From the IMG/VR virus record IMGVR_UViG_3300045988_120383: a stretch of DNA of 36,120 bases, one strand, 5' to 3'. Made by a program: the position numbers and the translations under genes. The DNA comes from a virus. Below the pieces are notes generated by a model. It did not search any database and was not told where the DNA came from. It saw only the letters and a program-made list of their open reading frames with translations. Shown one piece after another: positions 3,347 to 36,030 of this stretch; position 1 is the stretch's first letter; each line of letters begins with the position of its first letter.

Positions 3347-4540
3347 CTAGTCATCTCCTTTTACTTTATATTCTGTTGTTGTTTTTCCGTTTTTTGTTTT
3401 TATGATTTTTCTAACGATCGGCTTTTGTAGTCTCGTTCCTGTAATTTCTTCATATCCGCCGACGATGTCGCCGATTTCCAAGTCGATCCCTTCTACGTTT
3501 ACGTCGATGCTTTTATAGTTTTGCAGCTCTTTTAGACGCTTTGCTCCATCCTCTTCCAGCTTTTCTTTGTCTGCGCTCGAAAACTCATAAACCGCTTCAT
3601 TTTCTTCAAGTCCAGTGTAATACGGGGTCTTTCCGATGCTCCCGTCCTTTTGGACGTATAAATGCAGAATGATCCTTTCTTCGTTTTGTCCTTTTCCGGC
3701 ACAGATTAAGTGATTCACGCCACCTCTGTAATCTTTTACGGTAAACTGCACCTCTCCATCTTGCGAGTATTCCAGCGTTTCCGAATAGTTTTTGATCTGT
3801 ACGGCTCTGACGGAAACGTATCCATAATCAAGGTTTTCCGGCTCAACGTAGCTGATCTGCAGGCGATATCCTTGAGCGCTTAACATTTTATCGACTGCAT
3901 CATATAACGTGACGTATCGGTCGATCTGCCAACCTGTGACGGTGATCCCTGCCTTTTCTTCCGGCACAAAAAAAAGACCGTCGAATCGGTCTTTGATAAG
4001 ATCTCTCAAAATATCGTTTAAATCTCCGCTTACTGTCAGGTGATCCTTTCCCTCCGGCGGTTCTATGATTTTTCGCTTTAGCAGTCCTCTCCACGTTGTG
4101 CCGCACCACACAATTTCTTGCGTTTTGGTCATCACTTCAAGACTGTTTAGGATTCCGCCGTATTCTGTTCTCGGTACAAAAATGCGATTTCCGTACCAGT
4201 ACCGCTCTTTTGTCCACTCTTCCTGCGGCAAGCAGATTTCAAAGTCGTCCGCATCTCCAAGATCCATGTCGATCGCAACGCTCTGATCTAAAAATCCCAG
4301 CTCTTCTCCGTTTTTTCGGGCAATGGTAAATTCTAGCGGAAATAGATCTGCATTTCGCACAATCAAGTCCCGAGTTTCTTCCGTTACTCCACCATTATCC
4401 CCAGTTGCGGTAATCATTACCGGGTAAACCACTTCTTTCGTTTTCGTTGCCGGCGCGTTTAGTTTTCCTTGATAGCGATTTTCTCCGATTTCCGGTAAAT
4501 TCTGCGCTCTCCCATTTAGCGCTGCTTCCACCCGCTCCAT
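3347..4540 (-). CDS. Tail tip/baseplate protein (Tal position; siphovirus Gp37-like minor structural protein)
   Basis: 397-aa ORF immediately after the distal tail protein. Its start overlaps the upstream stop by 25 nt. The call rests on synteny. Confidence 0.4.
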   Translation of the reverse strand: MERVEAALNGRAQNLPEIGENRYQGKLNAPATKTKEVVYPVMITATGDNGGVTEETRDLIVRNADLFPLEFTIARKNGEELGFLDQSVAIDMDLGDADDFEICLPQEEWTKERYWYGNRIFVPRTEYGGILNSLEVMTKTQEIVWCGTTWRGLLKRKIIEPPEGKDHLTVSGDLNDILRDLIKDRFDGLFFVPEEKAGITVTGWQIDRYVTLYDAVDKMLSAQGYRLQISYVEPENLDYGYVSVRAVQIKNYSETLEYSQDGEVQFTVKDYRGGVNHLICAGKGQNEERIILHLYVQKDGSIGKTPYYTGLEENEAVYEFSSADKEKLEEDGAKRLKELQNYKSIDVNVEGIDLEIGDIVGGYEEITGTRLQKPIVRKIIKTKNGKTTTEYKVKGDD

Positions 4541-5358
4541 CTTGGTTCGCTCCTTTCCTCGTAAATTACGAGATCCCAGTCGAATTTACCCGACCACACA
4601 ACTTTTTGCCGGCCGGGCGGGATTTTCTTGAAAAATGTCTTTCCTTTTTCCCGGTTGTGAAACGCGTTGACTTGTTCGCCGTTTTTTGACACTTTCGTAA
4701 TGATCCTCGTGCGGCTGTCTATCTCCAGCCGCTCTCCTTGCTCTAAAACAATGTTGACCAAATAGCTTTTATCTCCGATGATGACTTGAGGGTTTGCAAC
4801 CGGCCCATAAATTACAAGTGTAAAATTTGCGTCTGTAAAATGAGGGTTTTGGATGTATGTGTTGTTCATGCCATTCGCGTAGCGGCATGGGTAACGCCCG
4901 GGGTAGCGTTTATTGTCCGTAGACGATGCGCCGTAGCTGTGAAACGTGTACGGGTTTTCTGTGATCCAAAATGGATACGGTGCGTACACATTCATTTTTT
5001 TCCTTACGGTGCGTGCTAAATTGCACTCTTCGTATTTTGTTCCTACTATATAGCATTCGATGTATCCCCCTTTGAAGTATAGCTTTCCCGGGGATTTCGC
5101 CTGTAAATCTCTTTCTGTGATTCTGTGCAATCTTTCTGCCGACTCGGCTCGTTCTTCCTTGTTCCCTCGGAAGTCCAATATCATTTCATACCTTTTGGCT
5201 TTTTTTCCAAAACCGTTTATTTTGCTTCCTATTTTTAATTCGCTTTCGTCTAACTCCCACTCGTAATCATATAGTCCCGCTTTTTTAATCTGCGTTTTGA
5301 TCCGATTGTCCGAAAGATTTATTTCTTCCCCTGTGCTCCCGCTTTTATACACGAGCAT
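4516..5358 (-). CDS. Distal tail protein (Dit; phage tail family protein)
   Basis: 280 aa, directly downstream of the tape measure gene with a 14-nt overlap. Size and position are typical of Sipho_tail/Dit. Confidence 0.6.
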   Translation of the reverse strand: MLVYKSGSTGEEINLSDNRIKTQIKKAGLYDYEWELDESELKIGSKINGFGKKAKRYEMILDFRGNKEERAESAERLHRITERDLQAKSPGKLYFKGGYIECYIVGTKYEECNLARTVRKKMNVYAPYPFWITENPYTFHSYGASSTDNKRYPGRYPCRYANGMNNTYIQNPHFTDANFTLVIYGPVANPQVIIGDKSYLVNIVLEQGERLEIDSRTRIITKVSKNGEQVNAFHNREKGKTFFKKIPPGRQKVVWSGKFDWDLVIYEERSEPRWSGWKQR

Positions 5359-8300
5359 GGAACATCACCCCCAAATCAGACAGCGTCCTTGTTACCTCTC
5401 TATTTCCTATATACGCCACCAGTTTCATTTTGCTCATTCCTTCCAGTATTGTATCCCGAAAGATATTTTGTTCTTTAATTCCGGCTCTGCCTGCTTTTGT
5501 ATCAATTTTTCCGTTTATGTCACTAAAATTCAGTGACTCCATAACGGAGCTTTTTACGGATTCCGCGCGATCTTTTACTCCCATTCCGTAAGAGTCCATC
5601 GTGTTATTCCCCATGCGCCTAAACACATGAGACGGCGAATGTATTTCAAGTTTTTCGTTTGCTGCCCTGATGGCTGCCCCTGTCGCTTCCGTTATCGCAT
5701 ATATCACTTGTGATTTTCCCTGTTGTATTCCCAGCGCAAGTCCTTCTGGTATCCTCGTTCCTATATTTGCAAATTGTGTTACTGTCAGCATAGAGTTTAG
5801 CTGATTTATAATCGTCATTGCAACTCCCGTGCTTGCAATCATCACAGTTGCTTTCCCTAAATTCATCCCATTCGCAAGCCCTTGATCCACATAAATTCCC
5901 GATCGTGTTGTTTTTGCGGATGGGGAGCGTACGTCGAGTCCGTTGTTTACAGATTCAATCACTTTCACTCCTAAATCATGCCCTTGCGCTTCCGCTGCCG
6001 CTTGAGCATCTTGCATCCCTTTCACGAGGCCCGCAACCGTGTTTGCTCCGCTTTGCTGCATGATCGGAGCTAAGTTTTCCATTCCTCCGGCTATATTTGC
6101 CGCTCCACTCTCAAGTAACTGCTGCCCCCACTGATCGGTCATGCCTTTTATGTCAACGCTCTGACTCCAAAGCTCATTCGCTTTCGCGAGTTCTTCATCT
6201 GTCATGGATGCGAATGCAGCGACATATCCCGATCCTTGTGGACCCATCTCTGCAAGTTTTTGTAAGATCCCCTCATTAATTCCTTTGTTTGCGAGTGTGG
6301 AAAGATTCTGTTCCCATTGCGTCACGCCGTCTACTTGGCTTTGCATGTTCGACAGAAGCTGTTGTGTAGATATTTCTGCGCCACCGTCAAATGCCTCGAA
6401 CATGTCCATCTGTGAGGACAGTGCGCTTTGTACGCTTTCTTGCATTGTCAACACACTGTTTGTTACATCTGTCGCGAGTTGTTGTTGCGCTGCTGACAAT
6501 CCCTGGTATGCCGCCAGTTCTTCCCCAGCTTGCTCGATACTTGCTTTTGACGCTTCCTGTTTTTCCGTTTCCGCATCCGCATTCGCCTGTTTTGCTGCCG
6601 TGTTGTCGTCGGTTGCCTGTGTGTTTCGTTCTGCCTCCTCCGTATTTTTCTGCATATACTCGTAAGCGCTTTGATACTTGTCGTTTACTTCATTGCATTT
6701 TTCGTTCAGCTCTCCAAGCGCTTCCGTCTGTTCTTTTTGTCTTTCTTTTAGTTCCGCCTCTGCTTCGCTTACATCGGACAGCGCTGTATAATAATCCGTC
6801 AGCTCTCCGTTGAATTTGATCTGTTTTTCTGTTCCTTTTTCAACGGTTTCATAGTTTCCGTTTAAAAGGTTTTGTCGATCCTGTTCAAGTTTTTTTAATT
6901 CATTATCAATGTCTGCAAGGTTTTGTTCCGCTTCGTATCTCGCTATGTCTGCATCTACAAGTTTTTCTGATATTTCTATCATTTTTTCTTGTACCGCTGA
7001 AGCTTTTGCCAGTTCTAGCGCTGCGTCTGCCGATCTTCGCACCTGTTCTTCATTTCTGTTTAGTTCCCCTGTATTTTCATCAACTGACAGTGACAGCTCC
7101 GGGAACATCGTATTTAATTGACTCGTGATCGCGTTCATTTGTGCGATTTCACCCTTTGTTTTTCCCGTTTGGGATTCTAATGAGTACAGTTTTGCGATCA
7201 GTCCGTCAGCAACCTTCTTCTGTGCTTCTACTGTCTGCACGGAATCTTTTGCACTGTCAGTTGTTTCTTCTAATGCGTTCGACGTCTCTTTTAGTTTCTC
7301 TATATTCTTATCTGCTTCTTTTGCAAGCTCGCTCGTTTCTTCTTTCGCTTCTCGTAGACCCGACGAAAGAGCCGCGACTGCTGTTGTCGTGGCCGCTATT
7401 CCCAGTACGACAAGCGCGATCGGATTCGCTGAAAGCACGGCGTTAAAAGCTCCCTGCGCCGCTGTTGCCGCTCCGGTTGCCGCTGTATTTGCAGTTGTTG
7501 CCGCCGTTCCTGCTGCTGTTGCTGCTGTGTTTGCCGTTGTCGCCGCCGTCGATGCGTTTTCTGCTGCCGTTGCCGCTGTTTTTGCTACTGTATGTGCTCC
7601 AAGCCATTTGATCCCGCCTTTGATCCCTTTTTGCGTATCGTCTAAAAGTTTTACAAGTTCGTTTCCTTTTTTTACAACAAACATTCCGGCAATCACCGGT
7701 GCTGCCGCTTTTGCTAATACCGTAACCGCGCCGATATTGTCTTTTAGGACTTCCATTCCTTTTTTTGCCGTCGGTAAAAATTTTTCCAACATCGGCGTCA
7801 TTACGTCTATTTGAAATGTTCGCCCCAGTGTTTTCCATTGTTTTGCCACGCTATCATATTGAATCGATTTAATCTCCTGCATCGTTCCGCTTACATCTTT
7901 ATAGGCGTTATTCGCTTTATTTAAAGATGTAATCACTTTCATGGCGTTATCTTCACCAAGTGCGCTCCATGTGTTGCTTGCGATCGTAAGCGCTTGTTGT
8001 TTGTTCTCCATGTTTGCCAGATCGGATATTACAGACTGGAAAACTTGTTTTGTAGAAGCCTCTCCGTTTTTCCACTGTTCAAATAATATTTTTGTATTCC
8101 CTGAAAATGAATTGATATTTTTTTCGATTCTTCCGTCTGCCAAGCTGTTTCCGAACTCCTTTACGAAGTCGTTTACCTTGTCCAGATTGTATGCGCCAGA
8201 ATCTAACCCATTTTGTAATATCGAAAACATTTCCTCTGCCGAAAATCCGGCTTGTCCCCATAATTGACTATACTCCGCTAAGTTGTCCGTCAGTTCCCCG

Positions 8301-20270: not shown

Positions 20271-21043
20271 GTGTTCACTATGTTGAGACGATATGAGTTA
20301 ACAGATGAAGAATGGAACCGTATTGTACCATTACTCCCTCCTGAAAATACAGGAAAGCAGGGACGTCCACGAAAAGATAACCGCATCATTCTTAATGGGA
20401 TGGTCTGGTTAGCACGCAGTGGTGCACCCTGGCGAGATCTTCCAGAACGTTATGGTTCCTGGCAAACTGTATATAGTCGTTTTCGTAAATGGATTGATGA
20501 CGGGATTCTGGATAATATTTTTCGCATTCTAAGCCTGGAGGCTGAACTGGAAGAATTATCTATAGACGCTTCCATTGTTCAGGCTCACCAACATAGCGCA
20601 GGTGCTAAAAAAAGGGGGCCTCGAATGAAATCGGACACAGCCGTGGAGGAGCCAGTACCAAAATCCATGCAATAGTAGATTCTTATGGCTATCCAGTGTA
20701 CTTTATGATCAGTGGAGGGCAGCGTAATGATATCAATTATGCAATTCCTTTACTGGATCATATCGAAATAGATGGAAGCAAAGTTCTGGCAGACCGTGGA
20801 TACGACAGTAATCAATTGATAGATTACATTTACGATCATGGCGGTGAACCAACCATTCCATCCCGCCGAGGAGCTAAATTTGAACGTCGCTGCGATTGGT
20901 GGTTTTATAAGGAAAGACATCTGGTCGAAAATTACTTTCTGAAATTGAAAGCATTTCGCCGAATAGCAACACGTTATGATAAATTAGCATTCACCTACTT
21001 AGGCTTCTTATGTATTGTCTCGATATTAATTTGTTTAAAATGA
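20271..21043 (+). CDS. IS5-family DDE transposase (orfA-orfB fusion through a -1 shift at an A7G run)
   Basis: orfA is MLRRYELTDEEWNRIVPLLPP...GRPRKDNRIILNGMVWLARSGAPWRDLPERYGSWQTVYSRFRKW. A -1 shift at 20607..20614 yields ...GHSRGGASTKIHAIVDSYGYPVYFMISGGQRND...ADRGYDS...ATRYDKL. Confidence 0.85.
20607..20614 (+). promoter_or_regulatory. A7G slippery run for transposase frameshifting or transcriptional slippage
   Basis: The sequence is GCT AAA AAA AGG. orfB (frame 2) is -1 relative to orfA (frame 0). Confidence 0.6.
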
Positions 21044-26674: not shown

Positions 26675-26970
26675 CTATGCGTCCTAGAGGTTGCCGCCTC
26701 TTATGGGCGCTTTTTTGTTCTGTAAACGTCAAAGTCTTCGCGATTGCCTATGCTTCCCCACGATGTGATCTGATCGTTTTTTGTAAGTACAACTGCGTTT
26801 GTATAATCCTGATCGTATTTCAGGCACCATCCTTCGAGCAGTTCTAAGATGCAGTTCATTTCTTCTTCGGCGTCTTTCTTTATTTCTTCGTTCATTTCTT
26901 TGTTCACCTCCTTAGATCGGTCCTGCCTGCAGGATGTAAATAATCACAGCCATCACCGCATTTAACATCA
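26675..26970. repeat. Direct repeat copy A (about 296 bp) of the pair flanking the hexapeptide-repeat gene
   Basis: It aligns with 27662..27955. The 26830..26970 part is near-identical to 27817..27955; the remainder is more diverged. Confidence 0.85.
26701..26907 (-). CDS. Small acidic protein, duplicate A
   Basis: 68 aa. The first 25 residues are identical to the product of 27689..27892. RBS TAAGGAGGTGAAC. Confidence 0.65.
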   Translation of the reverse strand: MNKEMNEEIKKDAEEEMNCILELLEGWCLKYDQDYTNAVVLTKNDQITSWGSIGNREDFDVYRTKKRP

Positions 26971-26986
26971 CACTATCTTCTTTCAT
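26912..26986 (-). pseudogene. Truncated copy of the C-terminal TM segment of the 27897..28121 gene
   Basis: MKEDSVMLNAVMAVIIYILQAGPI*. Its last 18 residues are identical to the C-terminus of the 74-aa protein. TAATG overlap with the hexapeptide gene stop. Confidence 0.4.
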
Positions 26987-27630
26987 TACTCAACGTATTT
27001 TCTATTTCCTACTTCGTTTTCATCCTCTTCGAATCTGAGTTCCATCAGGTCTGCCAGCATCAGGTATTCTTGTGCCTTCTTTGTTTCTCCGTGTGTCTCC
27101 CGGATCTTATCCCGGAACTGTGCAAGCGTCCCGTAGAAGCATCCGCACCGCACACCCACGCCGCCATCTTTGAGACGGAAGAAGGTCGTTGTACGGTTGA
27201 CAGATCCGAAACCGTGAGCGTATGCATAGTCCTCATCGCTGCACACCAGCGCATTGCCGTACACCCACGCATTGCCGTACACCCACGCATTGCCGTACAC
27301 CCACGCATTGCCGTACACCCGCGCATTGCCGTACACCCGCGCATCGCCGGAAACCTGTGCATCTCCGTACACCCACGCATTGTCGTACACCCGCGCATCG
27401 CCGGAAACCTGTGCATCTCCGTACACCCGCGCATTGCCGTACACCCACGCATTGTCGTACACCCACGCATTGTCGTCATGACCAAGGTTTGATTCCTTCT
27501 CCACATACCCGCCAAGTTCTCCGGCTTCCACATCGCCGAACTCAACAAGGGCACGGATGCGGAACAGCTTTGTCCCGAACATATTTGTAATAAATTCATT
27601 TGTTAATTCAAATTTCTTCACTTTCTTCAC
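26986..27630 (-). CDS. Hexapeptide-repeat (left-handed beta-helix-like) protein
   Basis: 214 aa with 13 consecutive [ND]-A-[WRQL]-V-[YSC]-[GDS] hexads. These are flanked by an N-terminal LFRIRALVEFGDVEAGELGGYVEKESNL and a C-terminal VRCGCFYGTLAQFRDKI module. Confidence 0.8.
   Translation of the reverse strand: MKKVKKFELTNEFITNMFGTKLFRIRALVEFGDVEAGELGGYVEKESNLGHDDNAWVYDNAWVYGNARVYGDAQVSGDARVYDNAWVYGDAQVSGDARVYGNARVYGNAWVYGNAWVYGNAWVYGNALVCSDEDYAYAHGFGSVNRTTTFFRLKDGGVGVRCGCFYGTLAQFRDKIRETHGETKKAQEYLMLADLMELRFEEDENEVGNRKYVE
27241..27474. repeat. 13 x 18-bp tandem repeat array (coding)
   Basis: The unit is gcattgccgtacacccac, with point variants. All six frames stay open across it. Confidence 0.9.
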
Positions 27631-27661: not shown

Positions 27662-27955
27662 CTATGCGCCCAGAGGTTGCCGCCTCATTTATGGGCGCTC
27701 TTTTATTCTGCAAACGAGGTCTTCGTGATTTCCTATACTTCCCCATGATGTGATCTGATTATGTTTCACAAGCACAACCGCGTTTGCATAATCCTGATCG
27801 TATTTCAGACACCATTCTTCGAGCAGTTCTAAGATGCAGTTCATTTCTTCTTCGGCGTCTTTCTTTATTTCTTCGTTCATTTCTTTGTTCACCTCCTTAG
27901 ATTGGGCCTGCCTGCAAGATGTAAATGATCACAGCCATCACCGCGTTTAACATCA
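27662..27955. repeat. Direct repeat copy B (about 294 bp)
   Basis: See copy A. Confidence 0.85.
27689..27892 (-). CDS. Small acidic protein, duplicate B
   Basis: 67 aa: MNKEMNEEIKKDAEEEMNCILELLEEWCLKYDQDY... Confidence 0.65.
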   Translation of the reverse strand: MNKEMNEEIKKDAEEEMNCILELLEEWCLKYDQDYANAVVLVKHNQITSWGSIGNHEDLVCRIKERP

Positions 27956-30390: not shown

Positions 30391-30714
30391 ATGCTTACAA
30401 AAGAAGCTAAGACTGTTCTGTATCAGCTCTATAAGGAATACCTTGTGCGCCGTGATGGCAATGTTTCACGGTCTCGTGCAAAATGTTTCTCTTCCGCAGA
30501 ATCGATTCATGCATCTTTGTTTCCGGACTGGTCACTCGAAGACGTTGAAGATGTTCTGCGCGAACTTGGGCGTAATGGTTTTCTCGACAATAGTTACGCC
30601 GACGATACAATCTACGATTGTTCCCTTTCCGATGTCGCCATCGTAAAGATGGAGAATCAGAAAAAGGAAACTCTGCTGACAGTTGCTGACTTTATCTCTA
30701 AATTCATTCCGTGA
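30391..30714 (+). CDS. Hypothetical protein (possibly winged-helix), transcribed opposite to the early operon
   Basis: 107 aa. RBS AAAGGAG. It has its own promoter. Its 3' end overlaps the convergent DUF2829 gene by 11 nt. Confidence 0.6.
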   Translation: MLTKEAKTVLYQLYKEYLVRRDGNVSRSRAKCFSSAESIHASLFPDWSLEDVEDVLRELGRNGFLDNSYADDTIYDCSLSDVAIVKMENQKKETLLTVADFISKFIP

Positions 30715-30934
30715 TAACAGTCCAGTCGTCAGCCATCAGATCATCCGCTGTCGGATTCCATCGCCCTGCTGTTTTTCTCGGTTTTCCATCATGCAATACC
30801 GTGATCAGACACGCATCATAAGAATTCGTCGGAGTAATCTCGGAATATATGTCGGATTCCGGTCTCCGTGCGGATGATCTGATGATTTTTCCATTTTCTT
30901 TCACTGCTTTTTCTACCGCTTCATGTATATACAT
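30704..30934 (-). CDS. DUF2829-like protein (Tad2-like candidate anti-Thoeris sponge)
   Basis: 76 aa. The N-terminal EAVEKAVKENGKIIR and C-terminal GRWNPTADDLMADDWTVI match the DUF2829 W.P...DL.A.DW.V signature. RBS GAAGGAGGTGA. Confidence 0.5.
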   Translation of the reverse strand: MYIHEAVEKAVKENGKIIRSSARRPESDIYSEITPTNSYDACLITVLHDGKPRKTAGRWNPTADDLMADDWTVITE

Positions 30935-30971: not shown

Positions 30972-31169
30972 TTAATTGTAAAAAATAAATTGCACAGAGC
31001 ATTTATGATATTCTGCAATTCTCTTCTTTACCTCATCACTAGGAAGTCTTTCACCATTTTCATACATCGAATATGTGCTCTGGCAAACATTAATAGCTTG
31101 TGCCACTTCTTTTTGTGTGCGTGTTCCGCGCAATTCCACTAATTTTTTGCCTATCCTTTTCCTATCCAC
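30972..31169 (-). CDS. Cro-like XRE-family HTH regulator
   Basis: GTG at 31169 lies 8 nt after AGGAGG. The ORF-track start at 31178 abuts the RBS. IGKKLVELRGTRTQKEVAQAINVCQSTYSMYENGERLPS. It is divergent from the repressor. Confidence 0.8.
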   Translation of the reverse strand: MDRKRIGKKLVELRGTRTQKEVAQAINVCQSTYSMYENGERLPSDEVKKRIAEYHKCSVQFIFYN

Positions 31170-31211
31170 TTTTATCACCTCCTGTTCACTATTAGTTCCC
31201 TTTGTGTTTTC

Positions 31212-31297: not shown

Positions 31298-31326
31298 TTT
31301 ACATAGTTCATACAAAGTGATATTAT
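31298..31326 (+). promoter_or_regulatory. Repressor promoter (P-cI)
   Basis: TTTACA, 17-nt spacer, TATTAT. It overlaps an AGTGA half-site. Confidence 0.5.
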
Positions 31327-31371
31327 AATTTTATAAACTAGATATTTCTATAAAGGCAGGTGAATATAATA

Positions 31372-32046
31372 GTGGATTTCAAAAATATAATATTAGCTCT
31401 TCGCAATGAAAGAGGGTTTAGTCAAGAGCAATTAGCTAAAGTTCTTCATGTTTCTAAAAGTACCGTTGCTATGTGGGAGACAGGTCAACGTCTTCCAAGT
31501 GTTGAAAAATATAAAGAAATTGCTGATTATTTCAATGTTGATATGGATTTTCTTTATGGTCGAACCTCTATAAAGAGGAGAACTCTATTTGATGAATCCG
31601 GTTCTGAATATGTAAATAGTAAACTTGTTACTAGCATTTCACGCAAAAATCAAGGTATTATAATTAACGTTCTCGGTCGTGTTGCTGCCGGTATCCCGAT
31701 CGATGCCGTTACCGATATTATAGATACAGAAGAAATCTCACTGGAGATGGCTCGAACTGGTGAATTCTTCGGGCTTCAAATCAAGGGTGACAGTATGGAA
31801 CCCAAAATTTCCGACGGCGATGTCGTGATCGTTCGGCAGCAAAACGACGCCGAAAGTGGGGATATTGTAATCGCTACAATAAACGGGGACGAGGCTACTT
31901 GTAAAAGGATTAGAAAATACCGAGACGGTATAGAACTTGTTTCAAGTAATCCTTGTTACGAACCTATGTTCTTTTCAAATGAAGAGATAGAAAATAAGCC
32001 CGTAAGAATTATCGGGCGAGTTGTTGAGTTAAGAGCTAAATTTTAA
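31372..32046 (+). CDS. CI/LexA-like repressor (XRE HTH plus S24 peptidase)
   Basis: ERGFSQEQLAKVLHVSKSTVAMWETGQRLPS is the HTH. GDSMEP is the Ser nucleophile motif and ATCKRI the Lys motif. GTG at 31372 lies 9 nt after AGGTG; GTG at 31360 is the ORF-track alternative. Confidence 0.9.
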   Translation: MDFKNIILALRNERGFSQEQLAKVLHVSKSTVAMWETGQRLPSVEKYKEIADYFNVDMDFLYGRTSIKRRTLFDESGSEYVNSKLVTSISRKNQGIIINVLGRVAAGIPIDAVTDIIDTEEISLEMARTGEFFGLQIKGDSMEPKISDGDVVIVRQQNDAESGDIVIATINGDEATCKRIRKYRDGIELVSSNPCYEPMFFSNEEIENKPVRIIGRVVELRAKF

Positions 32047-32126
32047 AGATATAACCACTACGGTGATTATATAAAGTGGTGTTAAAGGAACAGGGGACAA
32101 AAGAAAGAGAGGGAAGTAAAAACGCT

Positions 32127-32873
32127 ATGAAACAAAAAGAAAAATATTTTTTCGATAAAAATGAGGTCATCGGAAATAAAAAAAGAGCTATAAAAACCCT
32201 TAATGAGCTGCTTGAAGCACACATTAAAAAAGCACCTGAAGACAGCACAACAGAAAACGATTCCCATCTCAAAAAAGTAAATCTGCTTTCGTATTGGATC
32301 AATACATATTGTAGATTTATTAAAAAAGAAAAAACATTTGATGCTTCAAAAAATAAAGTATACAAAAGAGGTGAAATTATTCAAGTTGACCTAGGCTTTC
32401 GTATTGGTCATGAAGAAGGCGGATTGCATTATGCGGTTGTTTTAAATAAAAAAGACTCCCCTTATTCCGATATATTAACCGTACTTCCTCTTTCATCTAA
32501 AAAAGAATATACCACACCTAATAAATTCACTATTGATTTGGGAAACGAAATATATGATAAGCTCCATCAAAAGTATATGCAAAAATTCAATAATTCAATT
32601 CAAGATGTGAAAGTATCGCCAAATCCGGTGTATGCCGGAGAGAAAATAACGATAGCTTTTACAGTAGATACAACGGAAGCCGATAAGGTGCAAAAAGAAA
32701 TTGATTTAATGAAAACTGGAAGCATTGGCTTAGTTTCTCAAATCACAACAATTAGCAAAATACGAATAACAAAACCTTTGCATTATTCCGATGCTTTTGC
32801 AGGTATAAAATTAAGCGATGAAAGTTTAAATATAATAGATAAAAAAATCTGCGAATTATATATTGGTAAATAA
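32127..32873 (+). CDS. Long MazF/PemK-fold protein with an N-terminal extension and an internal insertion
   Basis: KRGEIIQVDLGFRIGHEEGGLHYAVVLN, ILTVLPLSSKK and GSIGLVSQITTISKIRI match the three MazF core strands. ATG at 32127; the ORF-track GTG at 32076 is an alternative. Confidence 0.6.
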   Translation: MKQKEKYFFDKNEVIGNKKRAIKTLNELLEAHIKKAPEDSTTENDSHLKKVNLLSYWINTYCRFIKKEKTFDASKNKVYKRGEIIQVDLGFRIGHEEGGLHYAVVLNKKDSPYSDILTVLPLSSKKEYTTPNKFTIDLGNEIYDKLHQKYMQKFNNSIQDVKVSPNPVYAGEKITIAFTVDTTEADKVQKEIDLMKTGSIGLVSQITTISKIRITKPLHYSDAFAGIKLSDESLNIIDKKICELYIGK

Positions 32874-32888
32874 TTATAGTATAAAGTA

Positions 32889-32917
32889 TTGACTTTTGGG
32901 GCATACCAACATATAAT
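32889..32917 (+). promoter_or_regulatory. Consensus sigma-A promoter for the toxin mRNA / leader RNA
   Basis: TTGACT, 17-nt spacer, TATAAT. Confidence 0.7.
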
Positions 32918-32980
32918 GTTATAGAACAAAACACCTTAGCGTGTATAACATTAGGACAATGCAGTTTACCTGCACAACTT

Positions 32981-33007
32981 AGACCCCGTAGTAATACGGG
33001 GTCTTTT
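32981..33007 (+). terminator. Hairpin plus U4 in the leader (terminator of an ~85-nt RNA, or a 5'UTR structure)
   Basis: agaccccgta-gtaa-tacggggtct followed by TTTTA. Confidence 0.5.
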
Positions 33008-33137
33008 ACGTTATACGAAATATACCCGACACTCCCAAAGTCGCCGGAGCATATACGAAGGAAAATGTATTTACCAGGGTAGCCGGAGGACGAGCTTCCA
33101 CCCATTCCGAGAATCCTGTGGAGGGGGGGTGGTAATT

Positions 33138-33221
33138 ATGAGTACATATGAAGAACTCAGTTTGATCATAAGCATTGCGCTTTTGGTTGTAGCCATTCTG
33201 AATTATACGCATAAAAAATAG
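33138..33221 (+). CDS. Type I toxin peptide, BsrG/BsrE/TxpA (Hol-Tox)-like, 27 aa
   Basis: MSTYEELSLIISIALLVVAILNYTHKK has the MSTYE.L..MI hydrophobic-helix-KK pattern of B. subtilis prophage type I toxins. The SD GGAGGGGGGGTGG can pair with ccaccc at 33098..33103. Confidence 0.65.
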   Translation: MSTYEELSLIISIALLVVAILNYTHKK

Positions 33222-33315
33222 CCGTCCTGCCCTGACAAAGCTGACGACTATTTCTTATAGTTTTTTAAGTTGCACCGGAGCGGGTGAGGTGCAGTCACCT
33301 TCCGGCTATCCTGTT
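33211..33315 (-). ncRNA. Candidate antitoxin sRNA overlapping the 3' end of the toxin mRNA
   Basis: The TSS is inferred about 7 nt below the -10. The RNA is GC-rich and structured (ccggaaggtgactgcacctcacccgctccgg). A T6 run coincides with the toxin stop region. The 3' end is uncertain. Confidence 0.35.
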
Positions 33316-33321
33316 AAGTAC

Positions 33322-33349
33322 ATTATAGCAAATGTACCATAAATGTCAA
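33322..33349 (-). promoter_or_regulatory. Consensus promoter for a convergent antisense RNA
   Basis: The - strand has TTGACA (33349..33344), a 16-nt spacer and TGcTATAAT (hexamer 33327..33322). Confidence 0.65.
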
Positions 33350-33390
33350 CTATCTAGATTTTCCAAATAGTTAGAAAGAGGGTGTGATAA

Positions 33391-34284
33391 ATGGATGATT
33401 TTGAAAACAAATTAACTGAATTACATGATCGTGTTCTTAGTAAGGCTCTTACCGAGGATGAACAGAACAGCTATACCGAATCTTTATTTGAATCCATTAA
33501 ACATATCAATGAATATGGAGAGGAGTTTTGGTACGCAAGAGAACTTCAGCGTGCTCTAGAATATACTGAGTGGCGCAACTTTTCTAGAGTTATTGATAGA
33601 GCTGTAACCGCTTGTGAAAATAGCGGAAATGATGTCTTTCATCATTTTGTTGAAGTCAACAAAACGATAGATATGCCTAAATCTGCAACAAAAGAAATTA
33701 CAGATTACGCACTCTCCCGCTATGCATGTTATTTAATTGTACAGAATGGCGATTCCCGGAAAAAGGTGATTGCTCTCGGTCAGACATACTTCGCCGTAAA
33801 GACAAGACAACAAGAATTAATAGATAATTTTAACGAATTAAATGAAGACCAAAAGAGATTAGCTATCAGACGTGAAATGGCAGAGCATAATAAATTATTA
33901 GTAGAAGCCGCAAAAAATGCAGGAGTTGAAACAAACCTTGATTACGCTATCTTTCAAAATTATGGGTATCGTGGTTTATACGGTGGTATGGATGCAAAGG
34001 CTATCCATCACCATAAGGGATTGAAACCATCTCAAAAAATCCTTGACCATATGGGATATGAAGAACTTGCCGCTAATTTATTTCGCGCCACACAAACAGA
34101 GGCTAAAATTAAACGTGATAATATACAAGGGAAAGAAAATGCCAACCAGACGCACTATAACGTCGGTAAAGAAGTTCGTGATACTATTTCACGATTAGGG
34201 GGAACGATGCCAGAGGATCTCCCCACCCCAACTAAAAGCATTAAGCAGATCGAACGCGAGCAAAAGAAACTGGAAGATAGATAG
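33391..34284 (+). CDS. dinD: DNA-damage-inducible protein D (DinD family)
   Basis: WYARELQRALEYTEWRNFSRVIDRAVTACENSG, LSRYACYLIVQNGD, QTYFAVKTRQQEL, GYRGLYGG, ELAANLFRATQTEAKI and LGGTMPEDLP are DinD hallmark blocks. Confidence 0.8.
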   Translation: MDDFENKLTELHDRVLSKALTEDEQNSYTESLFESIKHINEYGEEFWYARELQRALEYTEWRNFSRVIDRAVTACENSGNDVFHHFVEVNKTIDMPKSATKEITDYALSRYACYLIVQNGDSRKKVIALGQTYFAVKTRQQELIDNFNELNEDQKRLAIRREMAEHNKLLVEAAKNAGVETNLDYAIFQNYGYRGLYGGMDAKAIHHHKGLKPSQKILDHMGYEELAANLFRATQTEAKIKRDNIQGKENANQTHYNVGKEVRDTISRLGGTMPEDLPTPTKSIKQIEREQKKLEDR

Positions 34285-34497: not shown

Positions 34498-36030
34498 ATG
34501 TCTTATTTTATTTATGCTCGTAAATCAAGGAAGGATGCTGATCTCGAAGCGTTGGGAATCGATGTGCTCGAGCGCCATATCACCACTTTGCTGGAGCTTG
34601 CCAAAACGCTGTTGCTTCCGATCGGGGCAATTTATCGCGAAGTCGTCTCCGGCGACAGTATTGATTCCCGCCCGGTGATGTCTCAAGTGATGGCCGAAGT
34701 AGAGTCTTGTATGTGGGACGGATGTCTTGTTATGGACGTTGACCGCCTCGCCCGCGGAGATACGATCGATCAAGGGCGGGTACAGCGTGCATTTTTCTAC
34801 TCAAACACAAAGATCGTTACTCCTAACAAGACGTATGATCCGGCAAACGAGTACGATAACGAATACTTTGAATTTAGTCTGTTTATGAGTCGCAGAGAAT
34901 ACGCAACAATTAAGCGCAGGATGCAGCGTGGCAGAGAACGAAGCAGCTCTGACGGATATTATGTCGGAAATATACCGCCCTACGGATGGCGTCGCGTTAT
35001 CGCTCCTGATGGTAAGCACTTCTCTCTTGCTCCCGATCCAACCGAATCCCCCGTGCTCGATCTGATGTATGATCTATGCGGCAATAAACAATACGGTTAT
35101 CAAAAAGCATGTACTCATATGGCCGAAATGGGAATTTTATCAAGAAGCGGACGCCCGTTTACGCCGTCCACGCTAAAAGGAATTATATCTAATCCGGCAA
35201 ATATCGGAAAAGTTCGCTGGGGACATCGGAAAACGGTTCGTACGGTCAAAGATGGGAAAATTTCTCGTTCTCGCCCGCACTCGTCAGATTATATTCTTGC
35301 CGATGCAGTTTGGCCGCCCCGGATCAGCGCGGACCTTTTCCAGCGTGCCAACCAGCCAAAAGGGAGCTGCTCCGCTCCGGTGCGTGATGACAGACCGATT
35401 CAGAATATTTTTGCCGGTCTTGTCCGGTGTTCCCAGTGTGGCCGGCTGATGGTTCGTAAAAAAGCGCATACTAAAACGCCTTATGACATTCTGATTTGTC
35501 AATATACTGAATGCCCTACAGTCGGTATCCGAATTGATGAGTTAGAGCTCGCCTTGTTGGAATGGCTGCGGAATTACATAGATAAATACGAGCTCACTGA
35601 CGCGTTGCCCGAAGACGTGGAGAACGTCGCTGCAAAAGAAGCGATTGTTAAGAATTTTGAAAAAGAACATGAAACACTTTTAAAGCAACGTGAATCCCTT
35701 TTTGATTTTCTCGAGCAGGGTATCTATACGAAGGAAATTTTTATCGAGCGGTCAAACGCTCTTGAGCGACGCGTAAAAGAATGTATGGAGCACATTATCT
35801 CCGCGCAGAACGACCTTCACGCCACACTCGCACTACAGGCAAACCGTAAAAATTTCGTTCCGCGCTGTAAGAATTTGCTCGGCGAATGGGGTAGACTTAC
35901 AATTCCCGAAAAGAACAGCGCTTTAAAGGTTTTAATTGAAAAAATCATGTTCACAAAGACAAAACGAAACAAAAAGGGGCAGGATCGTTCTGATTTTGAA
36001 ATTGATGTGTTTCCAAAAGTGCCGAAATAG
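34498..36030 (+). CDS. Large serine recombinase (phage integrase)
   Basis: 510 aa. The resolvase domain has YARKSRKD (catalytic Ser) and VMDVDRLARGD. A recombinase domain, a zinc ribbon (CSQCGRLM...C.YTEC) and a C-terminal coiled coil follow. RBS AGGAG. Confidence 0.9.
   Translation: MSYFIYARKSRKDADLEALGIDVLERHITTLLELAKTLLLPIGAIYREVVSGDSIDSRPVMSQVMAEVESCMWDGCLVMDVDRLARGDTIDQGRVQRAFFYSNTKIVTPNKTYDPANEYDNEYFEFSLFMSRREYATIKRRMQRGRERSSSDGYYVGNIPPYGWRRVIAPDGKHFSLAPDPTESPVLDLMYDLCGNKQYGYQKACTHMAEMGILSRSGRPFTPSTLKGIISNPANIGKVRWGHRKTVRTVKDGKISRSRPHSSDYILADAVWPPRISADLFQRANQPKGSCSAPVRDDRPIQNIFAGLVRCSQCGRLMVRKKAHTKTPYDILICQYTECPTVGIRIDELELALLEWLRNYIDKYELTDALPEDVENVAAKEAIVKNFEKEHETLLKQRESLFDFLEQGIYTKEIFIERSNALERRVKECMEHIISAQNDLHATLALQANRKNFVPRCKNLLGEWGRLTIPEKNSALKVLIEKIMFTKTKRNKKGQDRSDFEIDVFPKVPK

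Follow-up and report, generated by a model that had tools for sequence, protein, structure and literature searches.

The window, a 36,120-nucleotide stretch of viral DNA (IMG/VR record IMGVR_UViG_3300045988_120383), encodes a long MazF/PemK-fold protein directly behind its CI-type repressor gene, and directly 3′ of the stop codon of the MazF-like gene lies a candidate small RNA gene with a promoter, a structured RNA of ~87 nt and a terminator. We propose, with middling confidence, that the MazF-like gene and the small RNA form a type III-like toxin/RNA-antitoxin (abortive-infection) cassette of lysogens. An earlier note on the same DNA had described the protein as a partner-less, self-contained effector. 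The RNA gene had been overlooked in that reading, and the self-contained architecture does not hold, as the RNA gene is conserved beside the homologues. The note had also stated that its proposal would fall if homologues carried a conserved adjacent antitoxin that had been missed; in essence such a conserved neighbour was found, although it is an RNA gene and not a protein gene.

Table 1 Features of the repressor–toxin–RNA region (positions in the window; aa numbering from the ATG start)
Feature	Position	Strand	Details
Promoter-like site upstream of cI	31298..31326	+	TTTACA-17-TATTAT with TG; 10/12 match
CI-type repressor gene	31360..32046	+	HTH_3 (2.6e-17) and Peptidase_S24 (8.4e-32); phrog_4 transcriptional repressor
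Spacer, cI stop to toxin ATG	32047..32126	+	80 nt; ribosome-binding site AGAGGGAAG toward the 3′ end
Long MazF/PemK-fold protein gene	32127..32873	+	248 aa from ATG; 265 aa from the alternative GTG at 32076
N-terminal helical hairpin, aa 11–68	32157..32330	+	Helices 11–35 and 46–68
MazF core, first half, aa 78–139	32358..32543	+	Motifs G-x-E-x-G-G-x-H-Y and P-L-(S/T)-S
Insertion within the fold, aa 140–196	32544..32714	+	Helix, β-hairpin, helix
MazF core, second half, and C-terminal helix, aa 197–248	32715..32870	+	Conserved G-S-I-x-L-x-x-Q-I-T-T-I-S-K-x-R-I
Near-consensus sigma-70/SigA promoter	32889..32917	+	TTGACT-17-TATAAT, 11/12; starts 16 nt past the toxin stop
Candidate small RNA, ~87 nt	32924..33010	+	Covariance-model match, 80.3 bits, E 5e-15; inferred 5′ end
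Small-RNA hairpin 1	32931–32944	+	ACAC/GTGT stem, loop CTTAGC
Small-RNA hairpin 2	32960–32974	+	TGCAG/CTGCA stem, loop TTTAC
Intrinsic terminator	32981..33004	+	10-bp stem, then TTTTACG

The open reading frame reported earlier at 32076..32873 on the plus strand exists and holds all three peptide blocks quoted for it. Its ATG at 32127 is the likelier start compared to the GTG at 32076, because the ribosome-binding site AGAGGGAAG is located ~9 nt upstream. From either start the protein is about double the normal MazF length of ~115 residues, as had been noted. The protein matched the Pfam PemK_toxin profile (PF02452) with 42.5 bits against a cut-off of 23.1, over profile positions 1–62 of 109 only, since the insertion splits the domain; this was the only significant Pfam match at E up to 1, and no ToxN, CptN, TenpN or AbiQ family was found. 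Sequence searches of the PDB aligned residues 78–124 and 190–236 with the B. subtilis and B. cereus MazF proteins. The AlphaFold2 monomer model (pLDDT 92.1, pTM 0.83), compared with the PDB by Foldseek as the earlier note had suggested, matched the MazF structures from S. aureus, B. subtilis, M. tuberculosis and E. coli with a probability of 1.0 and target TM-scores of 0.76–0.86, and the top 50 matches were MazF throughout. Thus, the fold is the SH3-like β-barrel of the MazF/Kid/CcdB type, and the original fold assignment is borne out. The two additions to the fold also agree with the earlier description: the helical N-terminal extension, put at ~95 residues, comprises 77 residues from the ATG and 94 from the GTG, and the insertion, put at ~55 residues, spans ~57 (roughly residues 140–196). 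Across the family the insertion is hypervariable in both sequence and length (6–140 residues).

The relatives of the protein form a large family of about 960 clusters (PHROG 1412), which NCBI names “PemK/MazF family toxin” and PHROGs labels “antitoxin mazE-like”; the latter label appears to be without basis, given the family’s match to the toxin profile. In the predicted active site, His101 (codon 32427–32429) takes the place of the catalytic arginine, aligning with B. subtilis MazF Arg25 (E. coli R29), and of the 332 family sequences, 328 have His here and 4 have Arg. Ser123 replaces the catalytic threonine (B. subtilis T48, E. coli T52), with Ser or Thr found here in 309 of the 332 sequences, and the adjacent Ser124 is invariant. 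The family invariants E96, G98, G99, S/T123, Q205, K211 and R213 correspond to RNA-binding and catalytic positions of MazF. As the canonical catalytic arginine is absent, the protein could be inactive or use a different chemistry. Indeed, the protein might not be a nuclease toxin at all, its MazF fold serving RNA binding or regulation after the Arg to His change abolished catalysis, with the RNA as its ligand or cargo in a non-toxic role, for example lysogeny regulation or interference with host MazEF; this would account for the lack of this arginine in nearly the whole family. Such a role is also in keeping with the PHROGs label, with the absence of any match of the protein to PADLOC-DB v2 HMMs (zero families at E up to 1) or to NCBIfam, and with CcdB, which has a non-nuclease function on the same fold (PMC5086642). 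We consider it very unlikely, however, as histidine is a competent general acid/base in many RNases, the retention of Arg in four family members argues for functional equivalence, and neither the Ser/Thr partner nor the substrate-binding motif of MazF (Q205, K211, R213 and E96) varies.

The gene is co-oriented with cI and lies directly behind it. The repressor is, by domain content, of the LexA-like, self-cleaving type. The distance from the cI stop (32046) to the toxin start is 29 nt for the GTG and 80 nt for the ATG, and no promoter-like or terminator-like site was found in this gap, both as reported before; the folding energy of the spacer was no better than that of shuffled sequences (z −1.4). 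The site upstream of cI is the presumed lysogenic promoter, which would drive both the cI and toxin genes. The position had been likened to that of rexAB in lambda, where exclusion genes are co-transcribed with cI in the lysogen. The analogy stands as regards location, with the gene right after cI, on the same strand and with no promoter or terminator match between them, and the location is kept in relatives; there is, however, no sequence or mechanistic relationship to RexAB, which is a two-protein membrane-depolarising system. A survey of the homologues, which the earlier note had called for, showed that the cI-adjacent order recurs in Staphylococcus, Streptococcus and Clostridia phages, in which family relatives are located between repressor and integrase. 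Staphylococcus phage B236 has the order cI, PemK-like gene, terminator and integrase, and the same order is found in Streptococcus phage Javan166 and in gut Clostridia prophages.

The RNA was recognised when small “ORFs” beginning 8–12 nt past the stop codons of the toxin genes proved to be one conserved non-coding sequence. In the window, its presumed promoter is the near-consensus site immediately downstream of the toxin gene, and relatives show the same layout. The word TAG(A/G)AC recurs in the RNA at 32922, 32952 and 32979. Among 12 divergent sequences both hairpins are paired in 100% of cells, with compensatory changes at 7 of the 8 pairs; none of 500 shuffles paired as well, and slid controls paired at 33–46%. 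The intrinsic terminator probably ends the small RNA and, judging by position, the cI–toxin transcript as well. No Rfam family matched the RNA of the window at the gathering threshold, and 13 related loci gave no Rfam match at E up to 1 or 5, the abiF motif RF03085 included. Tandem Repeats Finder (TRF) did not call the two-unit hairpin RNA as a repeat, in the window or on the flanks of all loci; it detected no tandem repeat upstream of the toxin gene in the window and no recurrent tandem repeat on the flanks.

Linkage of the RNA to the toxin gene is near-universal. We counted an RNA unit as a promoter of at least 9/12, 70–100 nt and a terminator, starting 0–60 nt past a stop codon. By this definition a unit follows 73 of 87 family genes; of 544 control genes from these loci, 6 (1.1%) are followed by one. 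By eye, most of the remaining 14 loci also have the unit, in four of them on the opposite strand and yet abutting the gene. The covariance model gave a single strong match per locus, always just 3′ of the gene. Phages of Staphylococcus and Streptococcus and one Streptococcus satellite have the unit too, and it is present at loci that carry no prophage markers: of 28 loci lacking integrase, HTH and M78 genes over a distance of 2.5 kb, the automated scan found the pair in 23 and inspection by eye in the other five. In a second class of the RNA, a single conserved hairpin stands between the copies of an invariant direct repeat, AGAAUAC, and the RNA classes track the protein subfamilies.

These data bear on whether the protein might regulate itself, with the N-terminal hairpin or the insertion restraining the MazF core until a phage cue appears and the RNA being functionally unrelated, as a general small RNA of the slot or a boundary of a cargo hotspot. 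Over the 332 sequences, W57 and E68 in helix 2 of the N-terminal hairpin show the same invariance as the residues of the active site. Moreover, mean-field direct-coupling analysis of this set, in which the top pairs agree with the predicted strands and the helical hairpin, showed that helix 2 co-varies with residues 88–92, 100 and 212, beside the β1–β2 loop, the partners including the end of β1 and the loop itself; in canonical MazF, this loop region binds both RNA and MazE. The hypervariability of the insertion is of a kind often seen in sensor domains, and the RNA unit occurs also behind unrelated cargo genes and, at locus L118, behind cI. Fused CapRel is, in addition, a single-protein prophage defence. 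Single-protein RNase defences are known in prophages as well (HepS, PMC13043305). Nevertheless, essentially no locus has the gene without the RNA, and this holds for chromosomal loci that lack prophage markers and for those with an inverted RNA alike; units of this kind occur at a rate of 1.1% in the controls, and the RNA classes follow the protein subfamilies. The coupling signal, for its part, does not separate intra- from inter-subunit contacts and is no demonstration of inhibition. We thus regard cis-regulation as unlikely, and we infer that toxin and RNA are functionally coupled.

No protein partner emerged in its stead. As the earlier note had maintained, no antitoxin-like ORF flanks the toxin gene on its strand in the window; nine early-region ORFs gave no match to MazE, AbrB or RHH families, so no MazE-like gene was seen among them, and the neighbours at 82 loci are heterogeneous, with no recurrent small protein. 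One of the nine ORFs is Tad2-like. HTH-Xre antitoxins are common, and a same-strand HTH protein lies upstream in 26 of the 82 loci, which raised the question of whether CI doubles as the protein antitoxin of a classical type II module. This was rejected and is extremely improbable, as the identical protein P0021 is found behind two different repressors with other genes intervening, most loci have no HTH neighbour and the upstream genes encode proteins of 35 to 543 residues from unrelated families. Type I-like antisense control was rejected as well: energies of duplexes between the RNAs and the toxin mRNA leaders did not differ between cognate and non-cognate pairs, with a mean rank of 29.8 of 67 for the cognate RNA (Mann-Whitney p = 0.18).

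How, then, does the proposed cassette compare with known systems? Type III toxins have a MazF/Kid-like fold with the β core surrounded by extra helices, and type III systems, which reside on mobile elements and lack a protein antitoxin, use a short repeated structured RNA whose excess over the toxin is helped by a terminator (PMC5086642). The present locus resembles ToxIN, CptIN, TenpIN and AbiQ-antiQ in its MazF-like core with extra helices, its adjacent structured RNA with repeated units and the absence of a protein antitoxin. It differs in three respects. First, the order of promoter, RNA repeats, terminator and toxin of all described type III systems is reversed, with the toxin first and a separately promoted RNA downstream, which some relatives encode on the opposite strand. 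Second, there are only two hairpin units of ~30 nt, and one hairpin in some classes. Third, the toxin matches PemK_toxin and not the ToxN-type families. In comparison with MazEF, PemIK and Kid-Kis, the fold, the G-x-E-x-G-G motif of the β1–β2 loop, the catalytic Ser/Thr position and the Q-I-x-T-I-x-K-x-R substrate-binding strand are shared, while the length, the N-terminal hairpin, the insertion, the His in place of the catalytic Arg and the lack of a MazE/PemI gene set the protein apart.

The nearest tested case is AbiF-RCd22 of C. difficile. AbiF, from the phi027 prophage, is an RNase neutralised through direct binding by RCd22, an RNA of ~100 nt whose gene has a SigA promoter and a Rho-independent terminator and whose two hairpin motifs are joined by a linker (PMC12373285). 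Both loci combine a single prophage-borne toxin, here a predicted RNase, with an RNA that has a promoter, two hairpins and a terminator, and a class-A RNA of the present type even occurs behind an Abi_2 gene at locus L096. By contrast, AbiF is a HEPN toxin and not a MazF fold, RCd22 is located upstream of abiF and co-transcribed with it rather than downstream, and the RNAs described here gave no match to the Rfam abiF motif. HepS of Gifsy-1, a HEPN tetramer activated by phage tail-tip proteins and with no RNA partner reported (PMC13043305), is likewise prophage cargo without a protein antitoxin, and is a lysogen-expressed RNase, as is predicted here. In “type II Gabija” of E. coli, GajC acts together with a helicase, GajB, again with no RNA partner reported (PMC13069673); the present family differs in having no recurrent helicase neighbour. 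The claim that the architecture is undescribed therefore stands in part: the family is named in databases, single prophage RNases such as HepS are known and AbiF-RCd22 is a precedent, but our literature search found no functional study of the long-MazF family or of its RNA. In papers on Staphylococcus, the gene is entered as a “pemK virulence determinant” (PMC6507118, PMC11018700).

From these comparisons we suggest the following mechanism for the type III-like cassette. The protein would be a MazF-fold endoribonuclease with His in place of the catalytic Arg, in which the N-terminal hairpin, packed beside the β1–β2 loop, and the variable insertion may enlarge an RNA-binding or regulatory surface. 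The ~87-nt RNA, presumably made from its own strong promoter and consisting of two short hairpins flanked by the single-stranded word (U)AG(A/G)AC, would bind the protein and keep it inactive. In the lysogen the toxin would be transcribed together with cI, and the RNA would be in excess because it arises both from its own promoter and from the 3′ end of the cI–toxin transcript. Should an infecting phage stop host transcription or degrade RNA, the labile RNA would decay, and the nuclease, once released, would cleave RNA and so abort the infection.

Prophage stabilisation is another conceivable function of this cassette. Indeed, the role of toxin and RNA antitoxin might be addiction, whereby a prophage or genomic island is stabilised, or a shut-off of the host at induction, instead of defence. 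Approximately 40% of the loci have the cassette beside integrases at the edges of mobile elements, many others are isolated two-gene units between housekeeping genes, resembling selfish toxin-antitoxin modules, and transcription of the toxin is tied to that of cI. However, the slot between repressor and integrase is common to exclusion and defence cargo, including the exclusion lipoprotein Ltp and Abi_2, the PADLOC candidate PDC-S13 adjoins the toxin locus, and ~10 of 70 upstream neighbours match defence-system models. We deem a role in addiction or shut-off to the exclusion of defence rather unlikely, although the addiction and defence roles are not mutually exclusive.

If the RNA is an antitoxin, the long MazF proteins would represent a fourth toxin lineage of type III systems, and the first in which the toxin matches the PemK/MazF profile in its own right; the gene order of this lineage is reversed. 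The pairing would moreover account for roughly a thousand “orphan PemK/MazF toxins” in S. aureus, streptococcal and gut Clostridia phage genomes, which are annotated without an antitoxin or mislabelled “mazE-like antitoxin”; members of the family reside on clinically relevant prophages. The repressor–integrase stretch of Bacillota phages is a cargo slot in which putative RNase effectors are repeatedly paired with a small RNA. For defence-gene discovery, the case advises caution, as a view restricted to ORFs can make a “solitary toxin” an artefact.

The RNA unit is not exclusive to the long-MazF gene. A search for RNAs sharing the terminator motif gave 66 matches, ~44 of them behind a long-MazF gene. 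The others are behind PBECR3 nucleases (4), a 171–181-residue protein whose C-terminal tail is SHOCT-like (6), an exonuclease-like protein, a lipoprotein or a membrane protein, or directly behind cI, as in L118. A tentative extension, possible though on balance doubtful, is that long MazF proteins with the His active site and their two-hairpin RNAs constitute an unrecognised, very widespread type III-like family of Bacillota phages, satellites and chromosomes, including S. aureus and Streptococcus prophages, and that the RNA is an exchangeable antitoxin for at least three RNase folds (MazF-like, PBECR3 and Abi_2/HEPN) in the same slot. It would be unusual for one RNA family to neutralise nucleases of unrelated folds, and because the unit is shared with other genes, the RNA could be a backbone feature of the prophage slot instead of a dedicated antitoxin. 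The class-A RNA behind the Abi_2/HEPN protein at L096 came from a separate pattern search. The strict class-A DNA pattern also gave four false positives in Prevotella/Bacteroidales and Ruminococcus coding sequences, none of which was hit by the covariance model.

The gene directly behind the CI repressor encodes a MazF-fold protein, and the earlier note, which had proposed this from the sequence, was right about the protein itself; the three peptide blocks that it quoted are all present in the translation. The start is likely ATG 32127, which follows the ribosome-binding site AGAGGGAAG and gives a product of 248 residues; the alternative GTG 32076 would give 265 residues. The Pfam PemK_toxin profile matches with 42.5 bits (cut-off 23.1), covering only the first 62 of its 109 positions. 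When the PDB was searched by sequence and by profile, residues 78–124 and 190–236 each aligned with one half of MazF from B. subtilis and B. cereus. The fold was borne out by a confident AlphaFold2 model (98 homologues as input; pLDDT 92.1, pTM 0.83), which Foldseek matched to the MazF structures of S. aureus, B. subtilis, M. tuberculosis and E. coli (probability 1.0; TM-score normalised to the target, 0.76–0.86). The protein extends this fold by a helical hairpin at its N terminus (helices 11–35 and 46–68) and by an insertion (about residues 140–196) of a helix, a β-hairpin and a helix between core strands four and five; the C-terminal helix is the usual MazF one.

Across 332 family sequences, residues E96, G98, G99, S124, Q205, K211 and R213 are invariant or nearly so and map to the MazF β1–β2 loop and the Q-I-x-T-I-x-K-x-R strand. 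Of the 332, 309 have Ser or Thr at the catalytic Thr position (B. subtilis T48); at the catalytic Arg position (B. subtilis R25), 328 have His and 4 have Arg. This position-by-position conservation, with His for Arg, indicates an active site that is conserved yet chemically altered, and from the few Arg-bearing members we argue that His and Arg may be functionally equivalent here. Conservation equal to that of the active site is seen at two residues of N-terminal helix 2, W57 (332/332) and E68 (331/332). Direct-coupling analysis of the same sequences, which reproduced the anticipated strand pairings as well as the helical hairpin, revealed strong couplings of helix 2 (residues 50–67) with residues 88–92, 100 and 212, that is, with the end of β1, the base of the β1–β2 loop beside His101 and the K-x-R strand. 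The insertion couples to β1 and the C-terminal helix and varies far more than any other region, with a length of 6–140 residues and a column entropy of 3.0 bits versus 1.4–1.6 in the core.

At 90% identity the family falls into 739 clusters; clustering at 50% identity leaves 959 representatives with E up to 1e-3 (540 of these up to 1e-10), most members being 225–320 residues long. It corresponds to PHROG 1412 (phrog_1412), labelled "antitoxin mazE-like" without visible reason; NCBI names its members "PemK/MazF family toxin". As the family matches the MazF/PemK toxin profile and fold, the PHROG label, which is carried through RefSeq phage records such as NC_007064 and NC_021863, is probably a mislabel. 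Staphylococcus papers give the gene as a "pemK" virulence gene (PMC6507118, PMC11018700) and, as far as the literature searched reaches, the protein family is catalogued yet unstudied.

Among GenBank phages the family is present in 63 Staphylococcus and 48 Streptococcus records, satellites included. Its position is conserved in phages of both genera and in gut Clostridia prophages. The order is cI, PemK-like gene, terminator and integrase in Staphylococcus phage B236; HTH gene, a 157-residue gene annotated "toxin", long MazF and integrase in vB_SauS_760; repressor, long MazF and integrase in Streptococcus phage Javan166; and HTH, Peptidase_M78, sometimes Ltp or other cargo, long MazF and integrase in the Clostridia prophages. 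An identical protein (P0021) stands behind two different repressors. Among 82 loci from species-representative genomes, 33 have a same-strand downstream integrase and 26 an upstream HTH protein, and no recurrent protein neighbour was found. In 28 of the 51 loci with both flanks complete, no integrase or HTH-type marker lies within 2.5 kb and the gene is set among housekeeping genes. One relative alone (L061) has repeats on both sides of the gene: 35 nt in 3.6 copies upstream (4758–4882) and 141 nt in 2.4 copies downstream (5843–6187).

The window is a tailed prophage in reverse orientation, with structural and lytic genes on the minus strand and a plus-strand lysogeny module at its right end. 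As the earlier note had stated, no promoter- or terminator-like site was found from the cI stop to the long MazF ATG, nor was significant RNA structure found in this spacer. Because the nearest plus-strand promoter candidate precedes cI (31298–31326) and the first terminator lies beyond the toxin gene, co-transcription with cI in the lysogen is the natural reading of the sequence. The comparison with lambda rexAB is fair for position and does not extend beyond it.

Features of the lysogeny module and of the RNA unit behind the long MazF gene
Feature	Coordinates	Strand	Remarks
cro-like HTH gene	30972–31178	minus	divergent from cI
CI repressor	31360–32046	plus	HTH_3 and Peptidase_S24 domains
Long MazF gene	32127–32873	plus	between CI and Hol_Tox peptide
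Presumed small-RNA promoter	32889–32917	plus	TTGACT-17-TATAAT, 11/12 match
Candidate small RNA, body	starts ~32924	plus	relatives' arrangement also in the window
Intrinsic terminator of RNA unit	32981–33004	plus	promoter/terminator scan; first terminator past the long MazF gene
Hol_Tox peptide, 30 aa	33129–33221	plus	Pfam PF16935, E 2.2e-6
DinD/Bro-N protein	33391–34284	plus	NCBIfam DNA damage-inducible protein D, 1e-125
Large serine recombinase	34498–36030	plus	last gene listed in the module

The proposal that the toxin is partner-less and self-contained did not hold. In many relatives, apparent small ORFs 8–12 nt past the stop codon proved to be one conserved non-coding sequence composed of a consensus promoter, 70–100 nt and an intrinsic terminator. 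An automated scan located this RNA unit after 73 of 87 family genes (65 of those promoters matching at least 11/12), as against 6 of 544 other genes of the same loci. Inspection by eye found the unit in most of the remaining 14 loci as well; some of them have a −35 box overlapping the stop codon and others a frameshifted gene. In L046, L079, L080 and L082 the unit is on the opposite strand, still abutting the gene. It is found in Staphylococcus phages, Streptococcus phages and a Streptococcus satellite. In the Javan166 locus, the S. pyogenes sRNA Spy779816 (RF02589, 76 bits; 4268–4354, minus) is convergent with and right after the RNA unit (4173–4254, plus), between toxin gene and integrase.

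The RNA class of the window, class A, has two hairpins of 4–5 bp with loops of 5–6 nt (32931–32944 and 32960–32974). Both pair in 12 of 12 aligned divergent members, with compensatory changes in 7 of 8 pairs and up to four pair types; shuffled controls reached the observed pairing and covariation values in 0 of 500 cases, and sliding the partner lowered pairing to 33–46%. A covariance model built from this alignment gave a single strong match in each locus, immediately 3' of the gene in every case (80.3 bits in the window). A recurring single-stranded word flanks the hairpins (TAGAAC, TAGGAC and TTAGAC in the window). Other classes have one longer hairpin, in one such class flanked by an invariant AGAAUAC direct repeat, and the classes track protein subfamilies. 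Rfam scans of the window and related loci found no family matching the RNA, its complementarity to the leader of the cognate toxin is unremarkable, and no description of the RNA was found in the literature searched.

The RNA is not exclusive to the long MazF gene. Searching with the conserved terminator word gave 23 genomic and 43 viral matches, about 44 of which follow a long MazF gene. Full units also follow PBECR3 nucleases (L097, L101, L115, L126). Further units stand behind genes for a 171–181-residue protein whose C-terminal tail is SHOCT-like (six contigs), for an exonuclease-like protein, for a lipoprotein and for a membrane protein; in L118 one follows cI directly. In L096 an Abi_2/HEPN gene (132–779, plus; motif RNSMAH) takes the exact long MazF position before a class-A RNA (876–970, plus; 88.7 bits), with a Hol_Tox-like peptide and integrase next; unrelated RNase cargo appears exchangeable ahead of this RNA. 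Either the RNA is the backbone of a prophage slot, before which cargo is inserted, or it is a modular partner functionally coupled to several nuclease cargoes. We favour functional coupling because the gene and the RNA stay together even in chromosomal loci that lack prophage markers and because RNA class correlates with protein subfamily. Known RNAs also occur at some loci with these units: two skipping-rope copies (RF02924, 49–70 bits) bracket the unit behind PBECR3 in L097 (74–151 and 285–363, minus) and L101 (3709–3777 and 3856–3932, plus), and L118 carries a RAGATH-8 RNA (RF02687, 224 bits; 3878–4151, plus).

Since a putative RNase of MazF fold is near-always linked to a structured repeat RNA with its own promoter, without a protein antitoxin, the pair is most likely a type III-like toxin–antitoxin or abortive-infection cassette, and we class the locus as a putative RNase/RNA variant of known systems. 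Type III toxins share the MazF/Kid fold (PMC5086642); GajC is a split MazF-like effector (PMC13069673) and HepS a single-RNase prophage defence (PMC13043305). The closest experimental precedent is AbiF–RCd22 of C. difficile, in which direct binding of RCd22 neutralises a prophage RNase; this RNA of ~100 nt has two hairpin motifs as well as a SigA promoter and a terminator (PMC12373285). However, the toxin here matches the PemK/MazF profile and has His where MazF has Arg, the RNA is of another family, and the toxin comes first with the RNA behind it under its own promoter, so that the cI–toxin transcript also ends in the RNA sequence. In the lysogen, excess RNA would silence the nuclease; foreign infection, through transcription shut-off or RNA decay, would free it; and upon induction of the prophage itself, toxin transcription would drop with cI while the RNA promoter remained on.

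Other genes of the window merit mention. The Hol_Tox peptide is preceded by a ~120-nt conserved leader (flanks 33010–33350), and, from the other strand, a perfect 12/12 promoter (33349 to 33322) would drive transcription antisense to it, the arrangement of type I toxin–antitoxin systems; similar peptide cassettes come after the RNA unit in L004, L096 and L115. The DinD/Bro-N protein has a further match to PDC-S13 (1e-119), which PADLOC lists as a candidate defence system, and is possibly a second defence cargo between cI and integrase. On the lytic strand, the ORF that comes next after the cro-like gene (30704–30934, minus) matches the Tad2-like (Thoeris anti-defence 2) domain with E 1.6e-10. 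Amid the minus-strand phage genes, two consecutive ORFs of 134 and 115 residues on the plus strand (20271–21043) resemble, by eye, a transposase of the IS5 family split in two; an insertion sequence would then lie inside the prophage. In the early region, a 214-residue YdcK β-solenoid repeat protein (26986–27630) is flanked by near-identical ORFs of 67–68 residues (26701–26907 and 27689–27892, both minus), each starting MNKEMNEEIKKDAEEEMNCILELLE, a local duplication.
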